IMG/VR virus record: IMGVR_UViG_2915331061_000005
DNA length: 64,000 nt
Strand: one strand, 5' to 3'
Source of the DNA: a virus
Taxonomy: Duplodnaviria > Heunggongvirae > Uroviricota > Caudoviricetes
A program made the translations under genes and the position numbers. Numbering within the stretch: position 1 is the stretch's first letter; the number at the start of each line of letters is the position of its first letter. Below, piece by piece: positions 1,067 to 60,038 of this stretch. The notes under the pieces were generated by a model. The model searched no databases and had not been told where the DNA came from. It saw nothing but the letters and a program-made list of their open reading frames with translations.

Positions 1067-1606
1067 TTATTTTCCCTTTATGATCCAGACCCGGTGTTCG
1101 CCGTATCCTTCCCAGTTCAGTGCATCCTCATGGCTGCCAGAAACAGCCACGTCCAGCTTATTGCCTTGAATGGCTGCACCGCGATCCTGCACAACGCGCA
1201 CGCCAATGTTTTCTATGTACAGAACGGTTCCAAACGGCAGGCTTTCATCTGCTGCAACAGTCAGCCCCGCCGTCACCGGTGCGCCGCTGGCGGTGATTCC
1301 GTGTCCTTCTCCGCAAATGTGCGGGTATTCTTCTGTGCAGTACGCCGTACACAGAAATTCCCCGGCATATTCCTTTGTCAGTCCATCTGGCAGGGCATTT
1401 TCATTGGCGGCAGTCTGTAACTGGTCGATAACTTCTTCATCCTGAATTGCTCTGTCCTGCCAGTTTGCCAGACGGGCGGAATAGATAATACGCTGCCCTT
1501 CCAGATCATCAATGCGTCTCTGCATCACCGCAACTTTTGTGGCATTGACAATTTCCGCCGCAAAGAACAGTACCAGAATCGCCTTTGTTTTCGCTGTCAT
1601 TTCCAA
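1067..1606 (-). CDS. 3D-domain (MltA/YuiC-like) cell-wall binding/lytic protein with N-terminal signal/TM
   Basis: TAYCTEEYPHICGEGHGITASG...VAADESLPFGTVLYIENIGVRVVQDRGAAIQGNKLDV matches the 3D (Asp-rich) domain. Paralog at 55645..56181. Confidence 0.65.
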   Translation of the reverse strand: MEMTAKTKAILVLFFAAEIVNATKVAVMQRRIDDLEGQRIIYSARLANWQDRAIQDEEVIDQLQTAANENALPDGLTKEYAGEFLCTAYCTEEYPHICGEGHGITASGAPVTAGLTVAADESLPFGTVLYIENIGVRVVQDRGAAIQGNKLDVAVSGSHEDALNWEGYGEHRVWIIKGK

Positions 1607-3117
1607 ACCTCCTTTTCGTCACCGCGATTGGAAACTCTTCTATTTCACTTGCCCAGCGTGCCGTGCCTTTCCCGTATGTAGTCTCCCACACTAGAGGAAA
1701 GCCACCAATTCCGTCAAACAAGCTACCCAGCGTTGCGCCCGCCGGAAGGTATTGCTTCATTTTCTGGGCGATCCAGAACCATTGCGGAAGCGCGATGCTG
1801 TTTCCCAGTGCCTTATAACGCGGGCTGTCTGCCGCCTTGTGCTTTTTCCCTTTGGTGTCCGTCCATTCTCCAATGTCCGTCCACCCGTCCGGGTATCCTT
1901 GCAGGCGCTCGCACTCTGTCGGGGTCAACCTGCGCACGATCCATTGTATCGTCTTTTCTATCACCGCTGCGTCGTGTCTTTCCGCGTACAATGTGCCCAT
2001 TTTTTCCACTTCGTATCCAATTCCGTTCGCCTTTGCTCCTGCTTTATAGGCAAAGCCAGCGCATAGCCGTTCGCGTCGATACTCCAAAGCTACCGCCTGT
2101 GGGTCGTGCATTGTGGTTAACGTGCCGGATGTTTCTTTGCTTGCGGAAACATTCGTTTGCCCATTCCCAACGCCATAGCTCGCCGTCAGGATAGCGGTAT
2201 AGTCCGTCACTCTGCTTTCGTGATCCCCGGTAATGGTCGGCACTGTCTTGCCATCACCGTTTCCCCGTGCATCAAAGACCTTATACGCTACTGCTGGACG
2301 GTCAACAGTGTTCAGCGTGTAGCTCTGGTTTTCCTTCACGCCGGAACCATTTGCGCCGGCCGTTTCAGAGCGATCAATAATGTTTCCTGCCAGGCAATAG
2401 ACCGGCTGAAAAAGGGTCTGATCCTGTAGCGTCGAAAGTGTTCCTGTTTTTTCGGTCTGCACCAGTGCACCTTTGCCGCCCCCGGCACAGCCTGACCGGA
2501 TTTTCAAGGTGTAGGCTTGCCCCCCCTGCTGGCCCACCATTCGATCATTTCCAGTAGGGCGGTTTCCAGCAGTTCTTGTAGCTTCTTGCCACGTCGGGAT
2601 GCTCTGGTCAGGATGCCCCGGCAAGCTTTCGCGCTCAAATAGTATTTCTCCGGCACGTCCACCTGCAAAATCCACGACAAGAGCGATACGTTTTCTTCTC
2701 TGGGGCACTCCCCAATATTGAGCGTCAAGCTGTCGCCAAGCCAGAGACCATCCATTTCCGGCGATTGCTCCGGCTTTGCTCCATCTGCCCCCCCCTCGGA
2801 GGTCTAGGAATTGAAGCGTCTGGTTCTTCCACGCGGGCAAGTTCTTCCAGCACGGCGCGGAAGTCTTCTCCGCCGTTTGAACTGAACGCTCCGGGAACAT
2901 TTTCCCAAATAACGACAACTGGATAACTTCCATGTGTCGCCCTCCTCATTTCTTTGATGATCCGAACTGCTTCCATGAACAATCCCGACCGTTCTCCCGC
3001 AAGTCCCGCCCGCCGCCCAGCAATGGAAAGGTCTTGGCATGGGCTGCCGAAGGTGATGCAATACACGGGTTCTATCTGGTCGCCATGTATCTTTGTGATA
3101 TCTCCAAGGTGGATCAC
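1509..3117 (-). CDS. DNA (cytosine-5)-methyltransferase, circularly permuted (motif order IV-VI-VIII-TRD-IX-X-I-II), split into two frames at a G8 tract (plus-strand C8 at 2768..2775)
   Basis: ORF 2725..3117 has GDI...FGSPCQDLSIAG (motifs III/IV) and ENVPG (VI). ORF 1509..2933 has YWGVPQRRKRIALV (VIII), RLTPTECERLQGYPDGWT (IX), ALGNSIALP (X), then LFDGIGGF (I) and ASEIEEFPIAV (II) near its C-terminus. The frames differ by one nucleotide at the homopolymer. Confidence 0.7.
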
Positions 3118-3431: not shown

Positions 3432-3461
3432 TGTTCTTCTCCCTTCTGCTTTTTGTTCTTG

Positions 3462-3538
3462 CACGGGTGGCCGGAATCGAACCGGCTTGCCTGCCGCTGG
3501 GGGATCAGGACGGCAGGCAACTTCCTTACTACACCCGC
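3462..3538 (-). ncRNA. tRNA-like structured element (7-bp acceptor-like stem, 9-bp hairpin with 14-nt loop, canonical T-arm GCCGG-TTCGATT-CCGGC); non-canonical, no D-arm
   Basis: Minus strand GCGGGTG...TGCCTGCCG-TCCTGATCCCCCAG-CGGCAGGCA-A-GCCGGTTCGATTCCGGC-CACCCGT-G. Conserved copy at 57773..57849. Confidence 0.35.
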
Positions 3539-3577: not shown

Positions 3578-3955
3578 GCGACCCGTTGCGGTCGGGTCTG
3601 CTGCCTTTTGCCTGGGCAATTGGGACAGGGCGTTTCTGCGCTCACGCTGCGACGTGCCGTTCAGCTTATGCCGGACTGCCATGCGGGCACGGTTTAGGAA
3701 ATACGGACAGGTCGGATTTTCACCGCCTTATACGGAAGGTTAGCGCTGCTTTTTCAGCATCCGTATTTCCCTGCCAGTTTTGGAAGATGAAACCTTGACC
3801 GGCTTCCATGGAATATGCGAGCAAAGCGGCGCAGGCGGGGTTCGACCCCGCTCCCAGCGTGCTGCGGGCACACCCTGCGCCATATAAAAGCCGCCCGGCC
3901 TTCACACATGACAACTGCTGCTTATCTGCTGAAAACTCTGGCCGGGCGGCTACAT

Positions 3956-4402
3956 TCAGTTTGTTTTGTGGTGCGTCACACTGTATTCTTCGCATTCCTT
4001 GTTGTACCCGTCGCAGGGCGCGCACCGCTGCGACGTGATACGGAACGTGTGTTGGCACTGTTCGCCCTTCTTCGGGGCTGGATGGGTCTTTGTGGACCTC
4101 GCAAGATTTTTCATTTCTTTTGCTTTATATAAATAAGTAGCAGTGCCCAGCGGCACCGTGTTCAGATGGAGCTTTGGTTGAACCCTGCGTGTCCGGTAAC
4201 GGCGCTTGTTGTGAATGGCCCATCCGGGCGTTTCCGGCGGCAAAAGCGTGTATGTCAAATCGTCCAGACCTTCACAGAAGCGTTTGACGCTCTCTGTGAT
4301 TTTCTCAAACGAGTCTATAATTATCTGGCGCATTTTCATCAAATCGCCCACCGGATCTTCGGACCATTCCCGCGTGCCGTGCTCAGGATCGGTTACTATC
4401 AT
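3956..4402 (-). CDS. Hypothetical protein; C-terminal 52 aa is a conserved Cys-rich module (EQCQHTF..RCAPC.GY..C) that occurs as a separate small gene at 58248..58421
   Basis: ORF 3956..4429. Its C-terminal segment aligns with the module-B small protein. Confidence 0.4.
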   Translation of the reverse strand: MIVTDPEHGTREWSEDPVGDLMKMRQIIIDSFEKITESVKRFCEGLDDLTYTLLPPETPGWAIHNKRRYRTRRVQPKLHLNTVPLGTATYLYKAKEMKNLARSTKTHPAPKKGEQCQHTFRITSQRCAPCDGYNKECEEYSVTHHKTN

Positions 4403-4551: not shown

Positions 4552-5040
4552 TCAGCCCCCGTTCTTGTCTTTCCGTGCCTGCTTGTCCACCGCACTGATG
4601 ATGTGCTTTACCACTTCTTCCATGGGCATATCACCTGCCGGGACCTTGAACATCACGCCCTGCGCCTGACCCGGATTTTCCTTTGCCTGCTTCATTGCAT
4701 CTGCAATAATTTTCTCCATCATGCTGTCCACGTCGCCGGGCTGGCTTGCGGAAGGATCATTCCGCTTTTCTGCCGTGGCGGCAGTGGCAACAGGTTCAGC
4801 GGCAGGTGCGTTGCCATACTCGCGCTTCCATATGGATTCAAACCGTTCGGCGATGATTGCTTTCGCTATGGTCATGACGGCTTCTGCCTTCTTGCGGTTG
4901 CCGTTGCTGGCATCTGCAACGGTGTGTGCAACTGCTATTGCCGCCATAAAAACTTGATCCGTACTGTCTCCCATTGTTTCCACGCTGAGCGAAGTTTCGC
5001 TCTTCATCTTCACGACCAGTTCTGCAATGTTCTTGCCCAT
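4552..5040 (-). CDS. Hypothetical protein
   Basis: 162-aa ORF, acidic, no recognisable motif. Confidence 0.45.
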   Translation of the reverse strand: MGKNIAELVVKMKSETSLSVETMGDSTDQVFMAAIAVAHTVADASNGNRKKAEAVMTIAKAIIAERFESIWKREYGNAPAAEPVATAATAEKRNDPSASQPGDVDSMMEKIIADAMKQAKENPGQAQGVMFKVPAGDMPMEEVVKHIISAVDKQARKDKNGG

Positions 5041-5054
5041 AACACGACTTCCTT

Positions 5055-5357
5055 TCAGGACGGCGCATTTCCGCCCACGTCACTAGTACCAGTGGCTTCA
5101 TACGAATATTCTTTCAGCTCAATGTCCTGTACGCTGTCTTCATCCAACCACTTATTGATGATGTTAAACAGGTATTGCTTGCGCATCTGAATAATGTTCT
5201 TGTTGGTGGTGCCCAGAGAAAACATCTTGATAGCAACGCTCGCTACAAGCCGGGTCAGTTCATCTCCCTGCCCGTTCATTTCCACATAGACACTTTTCTT
5301 CTCTGGCGCATCATGGCCCGTGAAAAACGCCAGAATATGCGTTTTGCTCTTATCCAT
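5055..5357 (-). CDS. Hypothetical protein (AF.HG...NGQGD family, homolog of 59526..59875)
   Basis: Start MDKSKTHILAFFTGHD with AAGGGAGACG RBS. Shares the pattern ILAFFTGHD...NGQGDEL with B copy YAFIHGE...GNGLDLL. Confidence 0.45.
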   Translation of the reverse strand: MDKSKTHILAFFTGHDAPEKKSVYVEMNGQGDELTRLVASVAIKMFSLGTTNKNIIQMRKQYLFNIINKWLDEDSVQDIELKEYSYEATGTSDVGGNAPS

Positions 5358-5370
5358 GTAGTCGTCTCCC

Positions 5371-5796
5371 TTACGAAGGCAGGCCGTCGTCTGCATCCTG
5401 CGGTCTGCTGCCGGTGCCCGCCCGGTCGTCCACAGCAGCGCCAGAGCAGGTAGCACAGTCACCGAAGCACCCGGTGTTCGTGTTCTCTTTCAGCTTTGCC
5501 ATCGCTTGCGCAATAGCGGTTGCCTTTTCGCCGTGCCACTGGACGCTATGGTCTTTGCCATATTCGATCTCGCTGTTGCGGGCGTTCCATGCATCATCCA
5601 GCATACCGTCCAGCTGGTTCTTCATGTCATCCAGCATCTTAATCGCCCGTTCCTTTTCCGGGCTGGACTGCACGATTACGTCAGCCAGCGCCATAGCCGC
5701 GATCTGTGCGATATCTCCCGCGTGGCCGTCAACCTGAATTTCGACATCATCGCCATCCAGAGCGACAGCCAAATAGGCATCCCATCTTTTCTCCAT
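5371..5796 (-). CDS. Hypothetical protein
   Basis: 141-aa ORF with RBS AAAGGACAAAAG. Confidence 0.45.
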   Translation of the reverse strand: MEKRWDAYLAVALDGDDVEIQVDGHAGDIAQIAAMALADVIVQSSPEKERAIKMLDDMKNQLDGMLDDAWNARNSEIEYGKDHSVQWHGEKATAIAQAMAKLKENTNTGCFGDCATCSGAAVDDRAGTGSRPQDADDGLPS

Positions 5797-5830
5797 CTTT
5801 TGTCCTTTCTATTGGTGTGAATCTTCGGTC

Positions 5831-5894
5831 TGGTGGAGCATCCCGGAATCGAACCGGTTCCGGGGCTACACCCCCGGACGCGCCTGCATACTCC
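5831..5894 (-). ncRNA. Minimal tRNA-like element ending in CTCCACCA (acceptor GGAGTAT/ATGCTCC, 7-bp hairpin, T-arm ACCGG-TTCGATT-CCGGG, discriminator A, CCA)
   Basis: Minus strand GGAGTATGCAGGCGCG-TCCGGGG-GTGTAG-CCCCGGA-ACCGGTTCGATTCCGGG-ATGCTCC-A-CCA. Only 64 nt, with no D-arm and no canonical anticodon loop. Confidence 0.35.
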
Positions 5895-5895
5895 A

Positions 5896-5927
5896 TAAAA
5901 CGGGCGGCTTGACAGGCTGCCGCCCAC
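5896..5927 (-). terminator. Intrinsic terminator (GGGCGGC-loop-GCCGCCC then GTTTTAT) immediately 5' of the tRNA-like element
   Basis: 7-bp GC stem plus U-tract. Same terminator-then-tRNA-like architecture as 3462..3577. Confidence 0.4.
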
Positions 5928-6066
5928 CCATGCGGGCCGCCCTATGTATTCTTTCAGTCCTCAGTAGGTAGGACCCCCGACTGTCGGAATGGCCGGGGCA
6001 GCCGTCTGCGTCCCCACGTTTCCGGCTGCATGGTGGGCGTGATTCGGTGCGCCCAGACCTTTGCGG

Positions 6067-6312
6067 CTAATCTCGTGGGTCTCTGCCGCCGATCAGCACG
6101 CCGCCCAGCAGTAGGATCAGCCACACCAACGCCACCACGCCCATGCCAAACTCCGTTATTACTTTGACCCAGTACAGCAGCGCTGTCAGGATGACGGCCA
6201 GAACCAGCGTTCCCGCCAGAACGGCCACCAGAATAATCAGGTTCATTTCGCTTTTCGCCCTTTCTTCTGCTTGTGCTGCCGCGTCTGCCGGGACTTCCGG
6301 CGGTCTTTGCAC
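6067..6312 (-). CDS. Small membrane protein (two TM helices)
   Basis: LIILVAVLAGTLVLAVILTALLYW...VVALVWLILLLGGVLIGG. Confidence 0.45.
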   Translation of the reverse strand: MQRPPEVPADAAAQAEERAKSEMNLIILVAVLAGTLVLAVILTALLYWVKVITEFGMGVVALVWLILLLGGVLIGGRDPRD

Positions 6313-8033: not shown

Positions 8034-8082
8034 CCCCCTTCTGTTGCTCTCGTGTTCGCTAAGTTAACTTTACGAGTTCATT

Positions 8083-8099
8083 ATAGTTTATCAAACTAT
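8083..8099. promoter_or_regulatory. Candidate operator: 7-bp inverted repeat ATAGTTT-ATC-AAACTAT upstream of the repressor promoter
   Basis: Perfect palindrome ~30 bp upstream of the -35 box. Confidence 0.35.
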
Positions 8100-8129
8100 C
8101 ATTGTCAACCCCTTTTTCTTCTTTTTTCG

Positions 8130-8184: not shown

Positions 8185-8667
8185 ATGAAAGATAGAATCC
8201 GGGAGGTTCGAGAGCATTTTGGACTTAGTATGGAGAAGTTTGGTTCCCGCATTGGCATAGGCAAAGCGTCCATTAGTCTTTTGGAAAGCGGTAAGAACAA
8301 TCCATCCGTTCAGACCATTACTCTTATCTGCCGGGAGTTCGGTGTAAACGAACAGTGGCTCCGCACTGGTGAGGGCGAAATGCTTGAGCAGACCCGGGCA
8401 AGCGTGCTGGACAGGCTGTCCACGGAATACGATCTGAGCAGGGAGCAGCGTTCCGTAATTGAAGCGTTCCTTGATCTGGACCCGCAGGAACGGGACGTGA
8501 TTCTGAAGTATGTGCATAACGTTTTTGACCGTTCCGCAGAATCCGCAGCCCAGAGCATAGCAATACCCGATAAGGAAGCCCGGCGCATTGCCGAGAGCGA
8601 CGAGTTCAAAGCCCTTCGGGAAAAGAACGAGCCGCCGGAGAGCGAATCGTGTACTACCGCCGGTTAG
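8185..8667 (+). CDS. XRE-family HTH transcriptional repressor (CI-like)
   Basis: N-terminal HTH_XRE motif (LSMEKFGSRIGIGKASISLLESGKNNPSVQTITLICREFGVNEQWL). Sits next to the integrase at the prophage edge. Confidence 0.8.
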   Translation: MKDRIREVREHFGLSMEKFGSRIGIGKASISLLESGKNNPSVQTITLICREFGVNEQWLRTGEGEMLEQTRASVLDRLSTEYDLSREQRSVIEAFLDLDPQERDVILKYVHNVFDRSAESAAQSIAIPDKEARRIAESDEFKALREKNEPPESESCTTAG

Positions 8668-41161: not shown

Positions 41162-41321
41162 CAGCTCGCAAGATGGGATTTGAACAGCTCATCTTGCAAT
41201 GATTTTACCAGTTTTCGCCGGTAAAGTCAAGCGGACACTTTGCAAGGGCTGCACCGCTCAACAAAGCAACCCATGCCCACCACCCCGCCGGGGTGATTCA
41301 AAAGAAAAGAGGTTTTGAAGT

Positions 41322-41711: not shown

Positions 41712-41824
41712 CCCCCGGATACCTTGACGGGCCGCACCACGAAAAGCGACCCGATCCCACGCCCCGACAATAGCCGGGGAAAAGCACGAAAAGCCACACC
41801 ACGAAACGAAAAGGAGAAACAACC

Positions 41825-42400: not shown

Positions 42401-42504
42401 TCCCCGCCGGATACCTTGACGGGCCGCACCGAAAAGCGACCCGATCCCATCCACCCGGCCCCGCCGGGAAGAACCACAACAAAAATTGAAAGGAAGTATT
42501 TACC

Positions 42505-43446: not shown

Positions 43447-43566
43447 CACGAAACGGAGACCCCAGCAGGGCCGCACCGCTCAAAGCGGCCCCGCCCCACT
43501 TCCCACCGGCACCCCGCCGGGGGATCGTCACGAAACACGAAAAACGAAAACAGGAGGCTTGAATTT

Positions 43567-44052: not shown

Positions 44053-44144
44053 TCCGCGCCGGATACCTTGACGGGCCGCACCGTAAAGCGACCCGATCCC
44101 AGCCGAAAGGCACAACACGAAACGCGAAAAGGAGCAAACGAATT

Positions 44145-45065: not shown

Positions 45066-45171
45066 TAAAAGCGGACACCCCAGCAGGGCCGCACCGATTC
45101 AAAGCGGCCCCGCCCCATCTTCCCGGCATAAATGTCGGGAACATCACGAAAACGAAAAGGAGCTATGAACC

Positions 45172-53369: not shown

Positions 53370-53464
53370 TTTCTTTCGGTGGGCACTTCCGGGCTTGAAC
53401 CGGGCGGGGCCTATTCCCTATGCTCATATAAAAAGGAGCCGCCGCTCTGGGCGGCTCCAAAAGA

Positions 53465-57736: not shown

Positions 57737-57772
57737 TCTTTTTACCTCCTATTGATTTTTTCATAGTTCTTA

Positions 57773-57849
57773 CACGGGTGGCCGGAATCGAACCGGCTTG
57801 CCTGCCGATGGGGGATCAGAACGGCGGACAACTTCCTTGCTACACCCGC
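57773..57849 (-). ncRNA. tRNA-like structured element, second copy
   Basis: ~90 % identical to 3462..3538. Differences in the long hairpin partly preserve pairing. Upstream terminator at 57856..57890. Confidence 0.35.
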
Positions 57850-58247
57850 ATATCAGAACCCACCGCGCAAGAGAGCAGCGCGGCGGGCCGGTCTTGGTCA
57901 AGCAGACCTTCCACCTTTGGCTTGGGTGGATCGGACAAGGCATTTCTTCGCTCATGCGGCGTGCACGCCCAAATCGGTTTCCGCACCGTCATGCGGGCGT
58001 AGCTTGGCAGAAAGGCAGCGTGGTCTTGCACCAGCTTACACGGGAGAAACGCCGCCATACGGCACCCTCTGCCCCTGTCGGTGCGTCAAATTATGGACAA
58101 ACGCACCGGCTTCCATGAATACCTGCTGCAAAGCGGCGCGGACGGGGTGTGGCCCCGCTGGCGGTTTCCCCCTGCGTCGTTTCAAGGTTCAGCCCCGCGC
58201 CATATAAAAGCCGCCGCGCTGACGCGGTGCGTGGCGGCTCATTCATA

Positions 58248-58424: not shown

Positions 58425-58991
58425 TCAGAAAGGAACTTCATCGTAGTGTGTAGCGATCATATCCGCGAAGTGCAGACACAGGGCTTCCGGGTAGCGGTCA
58501 TAAACAGCACTGAGCGTATCCCAGTCCTGCGACCCGCTGTATGCTCCCATGTGCCAGCGAATCGCCACGATCTCCCGCGCCGTCAGCTTGATGTACTGCT
58601 GTGCCATGATGACGCTTCCTTCTCCATGGCCTACCAGACCGGCGTCAAAGTATTCGTACTCACCTTTGCCTTTATCGCGGTACTTGCCCACCTTGCAATA
58701 GTCGTGCAGAAGCGCTGCCGCAAGAACTTCATTCCGGTGACATTTCTTGAAAGCGTGATTCGTTCTGCACAGTTCCATTGCCGCCTCTGCCACACAAACC
58801 GAGTGCTCACACAGACCGCCGGGATGGTTGGAATGGTGCTTAATGCTTGCAGGCTTTTCAAAGAACCCCAAAGCCACCATCTGCTGCCAAAGGTTTTCCG
58901 CTCCCGGACGATTAGCAAGGCCGCTCTCCGCCCAGAGAACCTCAAACTTTTCTTTCGGCTTCATGTCCTCATACAGTTTTTCGTTATCCAT
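58425..58991 (-). CDS. HD-domain phosphohydrolase
   Basis: HHSNHPGGLCEH...ALLHDYCK metal-binding H..H...HD motif. No counterpart in module A. Confidence 0.65.
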   Translation of the reverse strand: MDNEKLYEDMKPKEKFEVLWAESGLANRPGAENLWQQMVALGFFEKPASIKHHSNHPGGLCEHSVCVAEAAMELCRTNHAFKKCHRNEVLAAALLHDYCKVGKYRDKGKGEYEYFDAGLVGHGEGSVIMAQQYIKLTAREIVAIRWHMGAYSGSQDWDTLSAVYDRYPEALCLHFADMIATHYDEVPF

Positions 58992-59147: not shown

Positions 59148-59212
59148 TTTCCACTTGTATTTCTGGCAGCGGGTTTTATTTTCGTTCCTCCCGCCATTGG
59201 AACCGCCTTGTG

Positions 59213-59509
59213 TTAGTCCTCCGGTTCAAAGAACATTGCCACAAAGGCTTTCAGCTGGCTCACCGCCGCTTCTTTTTCAGCTTCCGTCTTGGCCGTCTTT
59301 TCTGCCCAGCAGTCCTTGACCATTTCATTGATGATCTCAAACATGCTGTCTTTCAGGTCTGACAGATTTTTCTCGTCGTCGGCCACCTCCATAAGGACAC
59401 GGGCCACAATAAGCTCTGCCGCCGTCATCATGCCAACCGAACCGCCGTGAATGCTGACTTCCAGACCATCAGCCGTTCCCACGGCTGTAATTTCCACATT
59501 ACAGTTCAT
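59213..59509 (-). CDS. Hypothetical protein
   Basis: 98 aa. Confidence 0.4.
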   Translation of the reverse strand: MNCNVEITAVGTADGLEVSIHGGSVGMMTAAELIVARVLMEVADDEKNLSDLKDSMFEIINEMVKDCWAEKTAKTEAEKEAAVSQLKAFVAMFFEPED

Positions 59510-59525: not shown

Positions 59526-59875
59526 TCAACCGTTCTGCAGTTTGTTTGCCAGCGCCACAATGAAGTCCTTGAAGCCCGGCTCTGTCTCTGCAAACTGCCG
59601 TGCCATGCGGAACCCTACCGTCTCGCCAACAGGAGGCTTTTCCTTCTTCTCTGCCGGAGCCGCCTTTCCCTGCGCTTCCAAATCGTTCTGCACTGCATCA
59701 GGAATTTTGTCCTGAATCTTCTTGATAACGTACGGACGAAGCGGTTCGTGAACTTCTGCTACAACGCTGCCCACGATCTGGATCGTCAAATCCAGCAGAT
59801 CAAGCCCGTTTCCCTTGAACTCGACCGACGCACCGCTGCCCTTGACCTCTCCGTGAATAAATGCGTATGCCATAC
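59526..59875 (-). CDS. Hypothetical protein (AF.HG...NG.D family)
   Basis: Start MAYAFIHGEVKG with RBS AAAGGACAAAGAG. Homolog of 5055..5357. Confidence 0.4.
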
Positions 59876-60038
59876 TCTTTGTCCTTTCTGCTTGCAGGTA
59901 AATTTTCGGATATGGGGGTGCGCCCCGGAGTTGACACCGGGCGGCGGGGCTTGACACTCCCCGCCTGCACTGGCCGCACCATATAAAGGCGGTGTCGGAC
60001 ATACCGCCTGCCCATGCGGGCCGCTCTGGCGTGTTCTT

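Follow-up and report, generated by a model that had tools for sequence, protein, structure and literature searches.

The locus and the fold of the element

The window (the whole stretch of DNA analysed, 64,000 nt) carries two prophages, 1 and 2. Prophage 1 is a relative of the Faecalibacterium phage FP_Toutatis (NC_047915.1); an HD-domain protein is present in prophage 1 and Toutatis and absent in prophage 2. The early operon of prophage 2 starts from a promoter divergent from a repressor-like HTH gene (8185-8667), and the element under study lies in this operon, ahead of a 141-aa ORF (Table 1). The protein adjoining the element occurs in 957 recorded blocks of public assemblies, and no Pfam or PHROG function was found for the flanking proteins.

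Table 1. Coordinates of the element, its surroundings and the related modules in the window
Feature	Position	Strand	Details
Class-2 (type A) tRNA-like element, prophage 2	5831..5894	minus	64 nt, three-way junction; evidence from sequence, fold, model, conservation and covariation
Acceptor-like stem	5894-5888/5841-5835	minus	GGAGUAU/AUGCUCC, 7 bp, one U5.G68 pair
Linker	5887-5879	minus	GCAGGCGCG, 9 nt
7-bp hairpin	5878-5859	minus	UCCGGGG/CCCCGGA; hexaloop GUGUAG at 5871-5866
T arm	5857-5843	minus	CCGG-UUCGAUU-CCGG; canonical T-loop UUCGAUU at 5853-5847
Discriminator A	5834	minus	
Encoded CCA	5833-5831	minus	
Intrinsic-terminator-like hairpin	5895..5925	minus	GGGCGGC-(10 nt)-GCCGCCC + G-UUUUAU; arms 5925-5919/5908-5902, tract 5901-5895
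Invariant 14-mer	5927..5940	minus	GCGGCCCGCAUGGG; small hairpin GCCC-GCAU-GGGY just 5' of the terminator-like hairpin; common to types A, B and C
Multi-hairpin RNA domain 5' of the element	5941..6045	minus	prophage 2 relatives only; lies in one conserved non-coding block with the element
Spacer before the 141-aa ORF	5797..5830	minus	semi-conserved (N)YCGAAnAUU right after CCA; ribosome-binding site AGAAAGGA
141-aa ORF downstream of the element	start codon 5796-5794	minus	
Sigma-70-type promoter	8080..8108	minus	perfect TTGACA-17-TATAAT; drives the leftward early operon holding all the modules
Class-2 type B homolog, prophage 1	59913..59980	minus	diverged copy behind its own terminator-like hairpin; GGUGCGG-CCAGUGCA-GGCGGGG(AGUGUCAAG)CCCCGCC-G-CCCGG(UGUCAACU)CCGGG-GCGCACC-C-CCA
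Terminator-like hairpin preceding type B	59981..60007	minus	GGCGGU-(9 nt)-ACCGCC + UUUAUAU
Class-1 module	3459..3538	minus	acceptor GCGGGUG/CACCCGU; 9-10-bp hairpin, loop ..AUCCCCCA..; T arm GCCGG-UUCGAUU-CCGGC; 3' tail G-CAA
Hairpin ahead of the class-1 module			CCACCGCGC..GCGCGGUGG + GUUUUGAUAU
Class-1 copy, prophage 1	57771-57848		
Class-3 module	3824..3881	minus	acceptor GGCGCAG/CUGCGCC; inner hairpin; T-like arm GCGGG-GUCGAAC-CCCGC; 3' tail G-CUU
Hairpin ahead of the class-3 module			GCCGCCCGGCC..GGCCGGGCGGC + UUUUAUAU
Class-3 copy, prophage 1	58131-58201		acceptor GGCGCGG/CCGCGCC

On the minus strand, the features described in the initial annotation are all present: a hairpin and U-tract, followed by a 64-nt element with an acceptor stem containing one G-U pair, a hairpin with a 6-nt loop, a discriminator A and an encoded CCA. 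The proposed structure is the minimum-free-energy fold of the type A element, which scores 98 bits with its own covariance model (R1). The T stem, previously given five pairs, was found to consist of four Watson-Crick pairs and a purine-purine 49:65 juxtaposition, which is one of A.G, A.A, G.G and G.A in every type A variant. The type A T-loop varies only at positions 57 (G/A), 59 and 60 (U/C), its variants being UUCGAUU, UUCAAUC, UUCGAUC and UUCAACC. With the exception of the purine-purine layer, type A has the combination of a 7-bp acceptor, a 5-bp T stem, a T-loop UUCRANY and N73-CCA, and as modelled it is a tRNA top half without an anticodon, in which acceptor stem and T arm are stacked over 12 layers. 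An exact 11-mer (GGTTCGATTCC) has three copies within the window, each inside a tRNA-like element of this kind.

The UAU closing the U-tract directly abuts G1 of the element. The upstream hairpin comprises seven GC pairs followed by GUUUUAU, with only four consecutive U, and was not listed by a consensus terminator scanner because its 10-nt loop exceeds the scanner limit of 8 nt. Its stem changes compensatorily in relatives (GGCGGUGU/ACAUCGCC in L011), and the corresponding stems are GGCGGU/ACCGCC in type B and GGGGCGG/CCGCCCC in type C. The multi-hairpin domain further upstream, in which public assemblies call no gene, also contains compensatory changes (GCAGCCG/CGGCUGC becoming GCGGCUG/CAGCCGC, and GUCCU/AGGAC becoming GUUCC/GGAAC).

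Homologs, covariation and related modules

No segment of the neighbourhood is better conserved than the element: 5 of its 64 columns (8%) vary among 26 distinct loci, compared to 77-79% variable columns in the flanking ORFs; in the most diverged relative, the element is 97% identical and its ORFs 40-81%. The gene downstream differs from locus to locus, while the conserved block stays. Homolog searches with parts of the element held fixed returned only near-identical copies, without power for covariation, and an unbiased scan anchored on the upstream 14-mer retrieved all three types (A, B and C). The element had been thought absent from prophage 1 (59150-59210); the homologous position is in fact 59980-59913, where the diverged type B copy is found. 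A search of the whole window with model R1, built from type A variants only, detected this copy at 24.8 bits (E = 3e-4), and model R2 scores it at 61 bits. No match was obtained for the prophage-2 locus in a blastn search of cultured phages, or for the model in 100 Faecalibacterium tRNA-Pro loci.

A plain MAFFT alignment puts the stems of the three types out of register. In the N-padded covariation alignment, whose registration by hand favours the structure, 93.4% of cells are paired, versus 35-55% in a control with the 3' partners slid by 1-3 columns, and seven base pairs in three helices show compensatory double changes across types A, B and C. Covariation is present in the stems of the initial annotation, well above the slid-partner control, and together with the top-half fold and the canonical T-loop it bears out the suggestion of a miniature tRNA-like element or acceptor-arm mimic. 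Several other positions are free to change. Pair 3:70 is A-U in 12 variants, U-A in eight and C-G in four, and G3.U70, the identity element for AlaRS, occurs in none of types A, B and C; the discriminator may be A, C or U, and this variation at the two positions, with G3.U70 never present, excludes an alanine or tmRNA identity. In types B and C, pairing at 7:66 is lost, and their non-canonical, variable 8-nt 'T-loop' means that they show the acceptor, T-arm and T-loop combination only in part. The NCCA end is kept in 21 of the 24 class-2 variants, and the commonest type B variant (nine loci) has CACA in place of CCCA; given this and the loop of types B and C, neither the T-loop nor the CCA is strictly required across the family. 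The number of stacked layers is always 12, made up of 7+R.R+4 in type A, 6+G.G+5 in types B and C, and 7+5 in classes 1 and 3.

The same module layout recurs in the window, consisting of a hairpin, a U-tract ending in UAU and a tRNA-like junction opening with G, and the likeness to a first class of elements that had been pointed out earlier is clear in the class-1 module at 3538-3459. Model searches of the 64 kb gave five strong matches, all on the operon strand and in ORF-free gaps of two early operons, with the class-1 modules of the two prophages scoring 51.8 and 43.9 bits. Classes 1 and 3 do not have the NCCA end. In FP_Toutatis, all three elements fall in unannotated gaps, the type B element at NC_047915.1 4022-4089. 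The element is thus real and conserved, and is one of several such elements per phage. These elements are new to Rfam (no family reaches threshold) and to the annotation of NC_047915.1, and are absent from the Faecalibacterium phage papers PMC5883640 and PMC11792537, which never mention tRNA.

In a quick survey of viral contigs for 'UUUAUAUG...T-loop', 78 of 120 matches were not callable tRNAs, and most of them belong to a few recurrent tRNA-like families, suggesting that anticodon-less tRNA-like elements are broadly distributed among viral contigs. The loop GUGUAG is common to type A and family X2, and the loop UCCCCCA to class 1 and family X1, despite different stems, which hints at a sequence-specific partner. 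In other gut phages, a related GUGUAG-loop element stands in series with a genuine tRNA-Trp, with only UUUUAUA between.

Proposed processing by RNase P and alternative functions

The best explanation, favoured tentatively and at slightly less than even chances, is that the element is a mimic of the tRNA top half serving as a processing signal, like the t-elements of plant mitochondria, with cleavage by RNase P. The element would be transcribed within the leftward early operon, whose polycistronic transcript would be punctuated by at least three modules per phage. RNA polymerase would either stop at the hairpin and U-tract or read through, and the read-through RNA would form the acceptor/T-arm coaxial stack with its 3' NCCA and ...UAU leader. 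Host RNase P would then recognize the stack and cut between U(-1) and G1, as for t-elements or MALAT1/mascRNA. The upstream RNA would receive the same hairpin-protected 3' end whether terminated or processed, the downstream mRNA would begin with a tightly paired 5' end or right after the CCA, and a CCA-ended tRNA-like RNA of ~64 nt, probably not aminoacylated, would be released.

We infer all of these enzymatic steps from features seen directly in the sequence. The features used by RNase P are kept (the 12 stacked layers, the type A T-loop and the NCCA end), and those it can do without (the anticodon arm, the D stem and the identity of the discriminator) are missing or free to vary. Each module in both prophages has the hairpin and the U-tract ending in UAU followed by G, so that every module has U at -1 and G at +1, as at the cleavage site of a pre-tRNA; this context is also the commonest one at positions -3 to -1 among 209 real tRNA genes, of which 70% have U(-1) and 73% A(-2), with UAU as the top triplet, and the host tRNA-Pro(GGG) has a UAU leader too. 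As in t-elements, a non-canonical tRNA-like fold with a T arm occurs at gene boundaries of a longer transcript, all copies lying on the operon strand in ORF-free gaps. Several points weigh against this reading: an efficient upstream terminator would leave little read-through RNA, the near-invariance of the type A linker and loop GUGUAG and the loop motifs common to families with different stems go beyond what a mere signal would need, and the T-loop and CCA are not kept strictly across the family.

This near-invariance, which exceeds the needs of pairing, speaks for an alternative in which the released mini-tRNA is a trans-acting small RNA, either a decoy for host factors that act on the elbow or acceptor end of tRNA (such as tRNA-binding enzymes, or defence toxins modifying or cutting the CCA end) or a regulator acting through the GUGUAG loop or the linker. 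Such a role, which we consider possible but doubtful, is compatible with processing by RNase P and differs in the target of selection, processing being only the means. It is consistent with the recurrence of GUGUAG in X2 with unrelated stems and of UCCCCCA in class 1 and X1, with the constraints on the encoded CCA and T-loop, typical of substrates of the tRNA machinery, and with the position in an early operon among small genes without annotated function, typical of counter-defence loci. On the other hand, a consistent antisense target within +/-4 kb was found for none of types A, B and C, no protein emerged as a partner, a literature search found no such decoy, and the three types have no common recognition surface, as they differ from one another in loop, linker, T-loop and discriminator. 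A broader version, in which temperate gut phages (Toutatis-like and many others) each encode several mini-tRNAs that host tRNA enzymes cut out of early transcripts and that act as decoys for host factors attacking or reading the acceptor end or elbow (such as CCA-modifying or acceptor-cleaving defence toxins, or SmpB), as an RNA-based counter-defence, is unlikely; if true, it would be distinct from full-length phage tRNAs that replace cleaved host tRNAs.

It is quite improbable that the element is a cis-regulatory structure for the downstream genes, such as a put/nut-like antitermination RNA or a 5'-UTR element, with only incidental likeness to tRNA. Its constant place next to a putative terminator and 30-40 nt 5' of a ribosome-binding site, and the invariant GCCC-GCAU-GGGY hairpin just 5' of the terminator, would suit such a role, but the element sits 3' of the terminator to be suppressed, the downstream gene varies, and the T-loop constraints, NCCA, 12-layer stack and pre-tRNA-like leader are too many for a chance likeness. 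Antisense regulation of nearby genes was rejected for want of a recurrent target, as was a T-box-like interaction in which the NCCA end would pair to the terminator region, for which inspection by eye gave only short type-specific matches that are not conserved.

A similarly slim chance attaches to the absence of any RNA function, the element being a decaying phage tRNA, an att remnant or an intergenic linker for homologous recombination between mosaic modules. A constant block amid mosaic flanking genes is the classic pattern of a recombination linker, the top half is tRNA-Ala-like (closest to tRNA-Ala, at 28 of 32 positions in a biased sample), and a host tRNA-Pro adjoins the prophages. However, compensatory double substitutions in three helices are unexpected for a DNA-level linker or a decaying pseudogene, and G.U pairs are tolerated in the minus-strand reading only. 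Derivation from a host tRNA or tmRNA gene, as an att copy of its 3' end, was rejected: the 25-nt 3' end has no match in 185,579 species-representative genomes, with no tRNA or tmRNA ending in this way, the complete 5' acceptor strand that an att copy would lack is present, and the integrase is a serine recombinase located far from the element.

A tmRNA cut down to its tRNA-like domain (TLD), which would bind SmpB and inhibit or hijack trans-translation, is very improbable. The topology is equal (acceptor, unpaired D-loop analogue, one helix for P2, T arm, ACCA), the size matches tmRNAs without a coding sequence (~65 nt), and the TLD-only RNA of phage DS6A inhibits tmRNA whether chargeable or not (PMC4131195, PMC11915505). 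The resemblance of the 3' end to tmRNA that was noted initially holds for the strand AUGCUCC-A-CCA (AUGCUCCACCA), which is identical to that of both tRNA-Ala and tmRNA, but not for pair 3:70, which is A-U here, and A-U, U-A or C-G across the types, in place of the defining G3.U70. The motifs GGnUUCGAC (D-loop) and GGAC (before the T stem), present in the true phage tmRNAs and TLD-like RNAs compared, are missing, the place of the D-loop analogue being taken by the linker GCAGGCGCG in type A and CCAGUGCA in types B and C, and these two types lack any TLD likeness. In agreement with the initial view that this is not a tmRNA, ARAGORN called no tRNA or tmRNA gene in the window, and the Rfam comparison proposed at that stage returned tRNA-Sec as the only match, the best in the tRNA clan, at 23.6 bits versus a cut-off of 47 and with D and anticodon arms deleted. 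A permuted or two-piece tmRNA was likewise rejected: an upstream GGGGACG...AUUCCGAC resembles a tmRNA 5' end but does not pair to the 3' strand, and ARAGORN makes no call. The 'tmRNA' that ARAGORN reports in L013/L029, beginning with GGAGUAU, is artefactual, its 3' end being taken from the tRNA-Ala next to it; the genuine tmRNA of L013/L029 is a permuted one.

An aminoacylatable mini-tRNA, charged via its long extra arm by a synthetase like SerRS or LeuRS (which are anticodon-independent) for a non-ribosomal or unusual translational role, has hardly any probability. The encoded A73-CCA, G1-C72 and G2-C71, and the placing of the 7-bp hairpin on the long variable arm of tRNA-Sec by Rfam, are set against the variation among homologs at the identity positions (discriminator, 3:70, and 7:66 in types B and C), the loss of the alanine determinant through A3-U70, and the 6-nt loop and missing anticodon arm. 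A canonical decoding tRNA was rejected on the lack of D and anticodon arms, the sole extra hairpin having a 6-nt loop, and on the negative ARAGORN result. Protein coding was also rejected: an ORF from an AUG overlapping G1 (49 aa, prophage 2) has no ribosome-binding site and differs from type to type, substitutions in the T-loop would alter its amino acids, and public gene callers leave the gap empty.

If punctuation by RNase P is correct, the 'tRNA punctuation' of polycistronic transcripts known from organelles would extend to phage operons, and would explain how the ends and stability of early mRNAs are set; were the released RNAs to have a trans function, they would represent a new type of small RNA in phages. 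Faecalibacterium prausnitzii, the host, ranks among the most abundant and health-associated bacteria of the human gut, and the prediction is directly testable since genomes are available for one carrier lineage, namely those of FP_Toutatis, which is described as a prophage, and of Lelie, which came from an uninduced culture.

Relation to known tRNA-like RNAs

Canonical phage and host tRNA genes share with the element the acceptor stem, the T arm and T-loop, the encoded CCA (found in 61 of 65 Faecalibacterium-locus tRNAs) and the UAU leader, but the element has 64 nt, lacks the D and anticodon arms, and is not called by ARAGORN. The C4 antisense RNA of phages P1 and P7 (RF01695) is likewise a phage RNA of an immunity or early operon, and Hartmann et al. 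(1995) reportedly found that RNase P cuts it from the operon transcript via an acceptor-like stem and 3' CCA. By contrast to the element, C4 has no T arm and acts through two loops complementary to downstream targets; RF01695 gave no Rfam match at gathering score or E <= 10, and no recurrent complementary site was found for types A, B and C. In the MALAT1/mascRNA (and MEN-beta) system of vertebrates, a tRNA-like structure also comes right after a structure that protects the 3' end, and Wilusz et al. (2008) reportedly found that a single RNase P cleavage makes the upstream 3' end and, at once, the 5' end of a small, CCA-bearing tRNA-like RNA, which is not aminoacylated. That system differs in that the transcript is a eukaryotic nuclear lncRNA, the stabilizer is a triple helix, CCA is added post-transcriptionally and the cloverleaf is kept.

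TLD-only (coding-sequence-less) tmRNAs are known from mycobacteriophage DS6A, jakobid mitochondria and Mallomonadaceae plastids (PMC4131195, PMC11915505). They resemble the element in being phage-encoded and ~65 nt long, with an acceptor, a T arm, one helix and ACCA, and without an anticodon or tag ORF, while the element lacks G3.U70, the D-loop consensus and any homology detectable by ARAGORN or Rfam, occurs in several different classes per phage, and has types B and C without TLD features. In plant mitochondria, t-elements guide the RNase P and RNase Z cleavages by which mRNA ends are formed, and the t-element RNA, once released, can be stable and can receive CCA (PMC1920247). They belong to another domain of life, and a bacterial RNA-based RNase P would act on the phage element, which further differs in its coupling to an upstream terminator-like hairpin, its encoded CCA, its missing D and anticodon arms and its place in an early operon. 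Common to both are a non-canonical tRNA-like fold, a conserved GGTTCRANYCC T arm and a location at gene boundaries of longer transcripts, with no role in decoding (PMC1920247).

Structure and genomic setting of the class-2 element

The initial annotation had described a terminator-like hairpin, a U-tract and a 64-nt tRNA-like element, an architecture borne out by the minus-strand sequence (see table) and by the minimum free energy fold, which reproduces the proposed three-way junction exactly (-31.2 kcal/mol, z = -2.0) and retains it on folding with flanks. No tRNA or tmRNA gene was found by ARAGORN in the whole 64-kb window. The Rfam comparison proposed in the same annotation gave, at gathering thresholds across the window, only six RAGATH-5 RNAs elsewhere and nothing at the class-2 element, and at a relaxed threshold a tRNA-Sec match of 23.6 bits (cut-off 47), in an alignment that omits the D and anticodon arms and sets the hairpin against the variable arm. 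Because of these fold, ARAGORN and Rfam results, the element is a tRNA 'top half' carrying one hairpin, and not a tRNA gene. It is very probably a real structured tRNA-like RNA.

Two related prophages lie in tandem in the window. Both carry a repressor-like HTH gene, a large serine recombinase and an early operon that runs leftward; the structural genes of prophage 1 lie at 12-39 kb. The host is Faecalibacterium. A tRNA-Pro(GGG) adjoins these prophages in many contigs and has an unchanged copy in ~100 Faecalibacterium genomes. Over the kilobase compared, prophage 1 shares 95.5% identity with Faecalibacterium phage FP_Toutatis (NC_047915.1) and 95.4% with phage Lelie. The class-2 element lies inside a 270-nt gap without genes in public gene calls, flanked on one side by the gene for a small membrane protein and on the other by an ORF of 141 aa whose function is unknown. 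Small proteins 3' of it share, by eye, the pattern ..V.E..V.G...D....A...A..V.. and are perhaps paralogues from a single unknown family; a homologue search returned close homologues only. In prophage 2, the gene for a C5 cytosine DNA methyltransferase is apparently split into two overlapping ORFs (2725-3117 and 1509-2933, within 1509-3117, minus strand), a sign of a frameshift or of a gene in two parts. The RAGATH-5 RNAs (58-68 bits, cut-off 50), 0.5-1 kb apart, fall in a 40-46 kb stretch whose AT skew is opposite to that elsewhere in the window.

Features of the window and of FP_Toutatis
Feature	Position	Strand	Basis or remark
Terminator-like GC hairpin GGGCGGC-(10 nt)-GCCGCCC	5925-5902	-	sequence
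G-UUUUAU tract between hairpin and class-2 element	5901-5895	-	sequence
Class-2 element, 64 nt	5894-5831	-	GGAGUAU GCAGGCGCG UCCGGGG GUGUAG CCCCGGA A CCGG UUCGAUU CCGG G AUGCUCC A CCA
Class-2 modules	5831-5894, 59913-59980	-	model R2, strong
Class-1 modules	3459-3538 (model match 3460-3537), 57771-57848	-	model R2, strong
Class-3 module, prophage 2	3824-3881	-	model R2, strong
Class-3 module, prophage 1	58131-58201	-	model R2, weaker
Possible class 4	329-377, 53376-53426	-	model R2, ~18 bits
Perfect sigma-70-type promoter, prophage 2 early operon	8108-8080		promoter consensus
Small proteins with shared pattern	5371-5796, 5055-5357, 4552-5040, 59526-59873, 59213-59509	-	by eye
RAGATH-5 RNAs	41231-41286, 41715-41766, 42407-42456, 43453-43505, 44059-44108, 45071-45124	+	Rfam RF02685
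Three elements in FP_Toutatis	~4022-4089, 5801-5871, 6154-6231		all in unannotated gaps

Conservation, covariation and the prophage 1 copy

Searches holding parts of the class-2 element fixed returned ~45 human-gut loci with few, near-identical variants. Across 26 distinct loci, 5 of its 64 columns (8%) are variable, compared with 20% in the upstream RNA, 38% in the terminator, 56% in the spacer and 77-79% in the flanking ORFs; the most diverged relative keeps 97% identity in the element, against 40-81% in adjacent ORFs. The block stays constant across loci while the downstream gene changes. T-loop variation is restricted to positions 57 (G/A), 59 and 60 (U/C), the very positions that are free in real tRNAs.

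A covariance model built solely from variants of this sequence (type A) and run unfiltered on the whole window detected another copy, which lies at 59980-59913 (24.8 bits, E = 3e-4). As in prophage 2, this copy comes after the invariant GCGGCCCGCAUGGG and its own terminator (GGCGGU..ACCGCC-UUUAUAU) and is followed by a similar spacer and ribosome-binding site. Because this diverged copy occupies the truly homologous position, the earlier claim that the element is absent from prophage 1 was wrong. When an invariant 14-mer served as anchor and the element itself was unconstrained, three sequence types were recovered: type A, type B (GGUGCGG..GCGCACC-C/U-CCA) and type C (GGCGCGG..GCGCGCC-U-CCA).

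Among 24 distinct sequences, registered by hand (a procedure biased toward structure, the sequence anchors nonetheless being unambiguous), 93.4% of cells form pairs, against 35-55% with 3' partners slid by 1-3 columns. The covariation score is 0.333 (at most 0.143 for slid versions), a value reached by 0 of 500 shuffles. A lack of covariation, named in the initial annotation as evidence that would count against the stems, was not observed: 7 of 19 pairs change on both sides, namely 3:70 (AU, UA, CG), 6:67 (AU, GC), four hairpin pairs and one T-stem pair. The 5' strand of the prophage 2 terminator, GGGCGGC, has a second copy 15 nt further upstream, which allows alternative pairings. Upstream of this terminator lies a multi-hairpin RNA domain (5941-6045, minus strand); two of its hairpins show compensatory changes, and the domain matches no Rfam family and does not occur in prophage 1.

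Repeated modules and related tRNA-like families

A second covariance model (R2) gave five strong matches in the window, all on the minus strand and all in gaps between the ORFs of the two early operons. Every module has an upstream GC hairpin and a U-tract ending in UAU, which abuts a closing stem starting with G, and acceptor and T stem form 12 stacked layers throughout. The 3' tails are NCCA in class 2, GCAA in class 1 and GCUU in class 3. Class 1 carries a long hairpin with AUCCCCCA in its loop; possible pairing partners for this C-rich loop are purine-rich ribosome-binding sites, for example AGAAGGGAGAAG a short way downstream. The class-1 acceptor strand, GCGGGUG-UAG, is similar to the host tRNA-Pro(GGG) 5' end, CCGGGUG-UAG. 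Other viral contigs from the gut contain many members of a related family, X1 (GUUGCGU..CUCCCCCA..ACGCAGC). Class 3 has a T-like loop, GUCGAAC, its own upstream hairpin with UUUUAUAU, and an acceptor, GGCGCAG/CUGCGCC, which shows a compensatory change in prophage 1 (GGCGCGG/CCGCGCC). A possible class 4 comprises a terminator (GAGCCGCC..GGCGGCUUC and UUUUUAUAU) followed by GAGCAU..CCCGG-UUCAAGC-CCGGA-AAUGCCC-ACCGAAAG. The ~220 nt that separate the class-3 element from the class-1 terminator (3600-3823, minus strand) contain no convincing ORF and show partial conservation in prophage 1 and in FP_Toutatis (record positions 5759-6266, a gap in the annotation). An HD-domain protein gene (58425-58991, minus strand; FP_Toutatis gp11; Pfam HD, E = 1.8e-8; weakly YhaM-like) lies between the class-2 and class-3 elements in prophage 1 and Toutatis; prophage 2 lacks it. 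In two papers on these Faecalibacterium phages, tRNA goes unmentioned (PMC5883640, PMC11792537).

The leader resembles that of real tRNAs. Among 209 distinct tRNA genes, drawn from loci chosen independently of leader, U(-1) occurs in 70% and A(-2) in 73%, and UAU is the top -3..-1 triplet; host tRNA-Pro has the same leader, and CCA is encoded in 61 of 65 tRNAs of Faecalibacterium loci. A search of viral contigs for UUUAUAUG...T-loop gave at least 120 matches; among the 120 listed, 78 are not callable as tRNA, and a few recurrent tRNA-like families make up most of these. Family X2 (L157, L158, L168) combines a D arm, the GUGUAG hexaloop of type A on another (5-bp) stem and a T arm, laid out as hairpin, UUUUUAUAU and tRNA-like RNA, then UUUUAUA and a genuine tRNA-Trp(CCA). 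Because of the leader and this X2/tRNA-Trp arrangement, the tRNA-like elements appear to occupy tRNA positions in an identical processing context. Family X3 (with L056), GGUUC-AGCAAG..(linker)..T arm..CUUGCU-ACAA, is a minimal form with acceptor and T arm only, the third hairpin being missing. RNAs of 70-83 nt with acceptor GGGGCAU...AUGCUCCACCA (G3.U70; viral contigs L048/L051, L033/L050, L020, L016/L031/L037/L040), some with a tmRNA-like D-loop (GGUUUCGAC) and no room for a tag ORF, look like TLD-only tmRNAs (tRNA-like domain alone), as in phage DS6A.

Possible roles and known counterparts

The fold, conservation, repetition at gene boundaries, pre-tRNA-like leader and NCCA are established for the class-2 element. 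For substrate recognition, bacterial RNase P relies on the stacked acceptor and T arm, the region of the T-loop, U(-1) and RCCA, and it can do without the D or anticodon arms. Processing by RNase P may be the main role, a tentative assignment: read-through transcripts would be cut at U(-1)/G1, leaving an upstream RNA with a hairpin-protected 3' end identical to that from termination, and releasing or capping the downstream part.

The main rival or complement, on account of the near-invariant type A sequence and the loop motifs common to different families, is a trans-acting decoy or regulator. These features suggest an additional sequence-specific partner, but no consistent antisense target was found for types A, B and C within +/-4 kb, and such a role is rather unlikely. 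Any single family-wide model is weakened by the relaxed T-loops of types B and C and by one common type B variant without CCA.

The 3' end had also been likened to tmRNA. Its strand AUGCUCC-A-CCA is indeed the usual tRNA-Ala/tmRNA end; G.U never occurs at pair 3:70, the discriminator varies among A, C and U, and the D-loop consensus of tmRNA is missing, so that neither alanine identity nor the defining features of a TLD-only tmRNA were found. Types B and C have G.G at pair 7:66, the three types share no identity set for any aminoacyl-tRNA synthetase, and the RNA is probably not aminoacylated. An att-site copy is made less likely by the 25-nt 3' end, present in no tRNA or tmRNA in a 185,579-species genome collection.

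Neither Rfam 15 nor the searched literature yielded terminator-coupled, anticodon-less mini-tRNAs that recur along the early operon of a phage; tRNA-like processing signals and TLD-only tmRNAs are already known. MALAT1/mascRNA is processed in the manner proposed here. The TLD-only tmRNA of phage DS6A inhibits tmRNA, whether chargeable or not (PMC4131195; PMC11915505). Plant-mitochondrial t-elements work by the kind of cleavage proposed here (PMC1920247).
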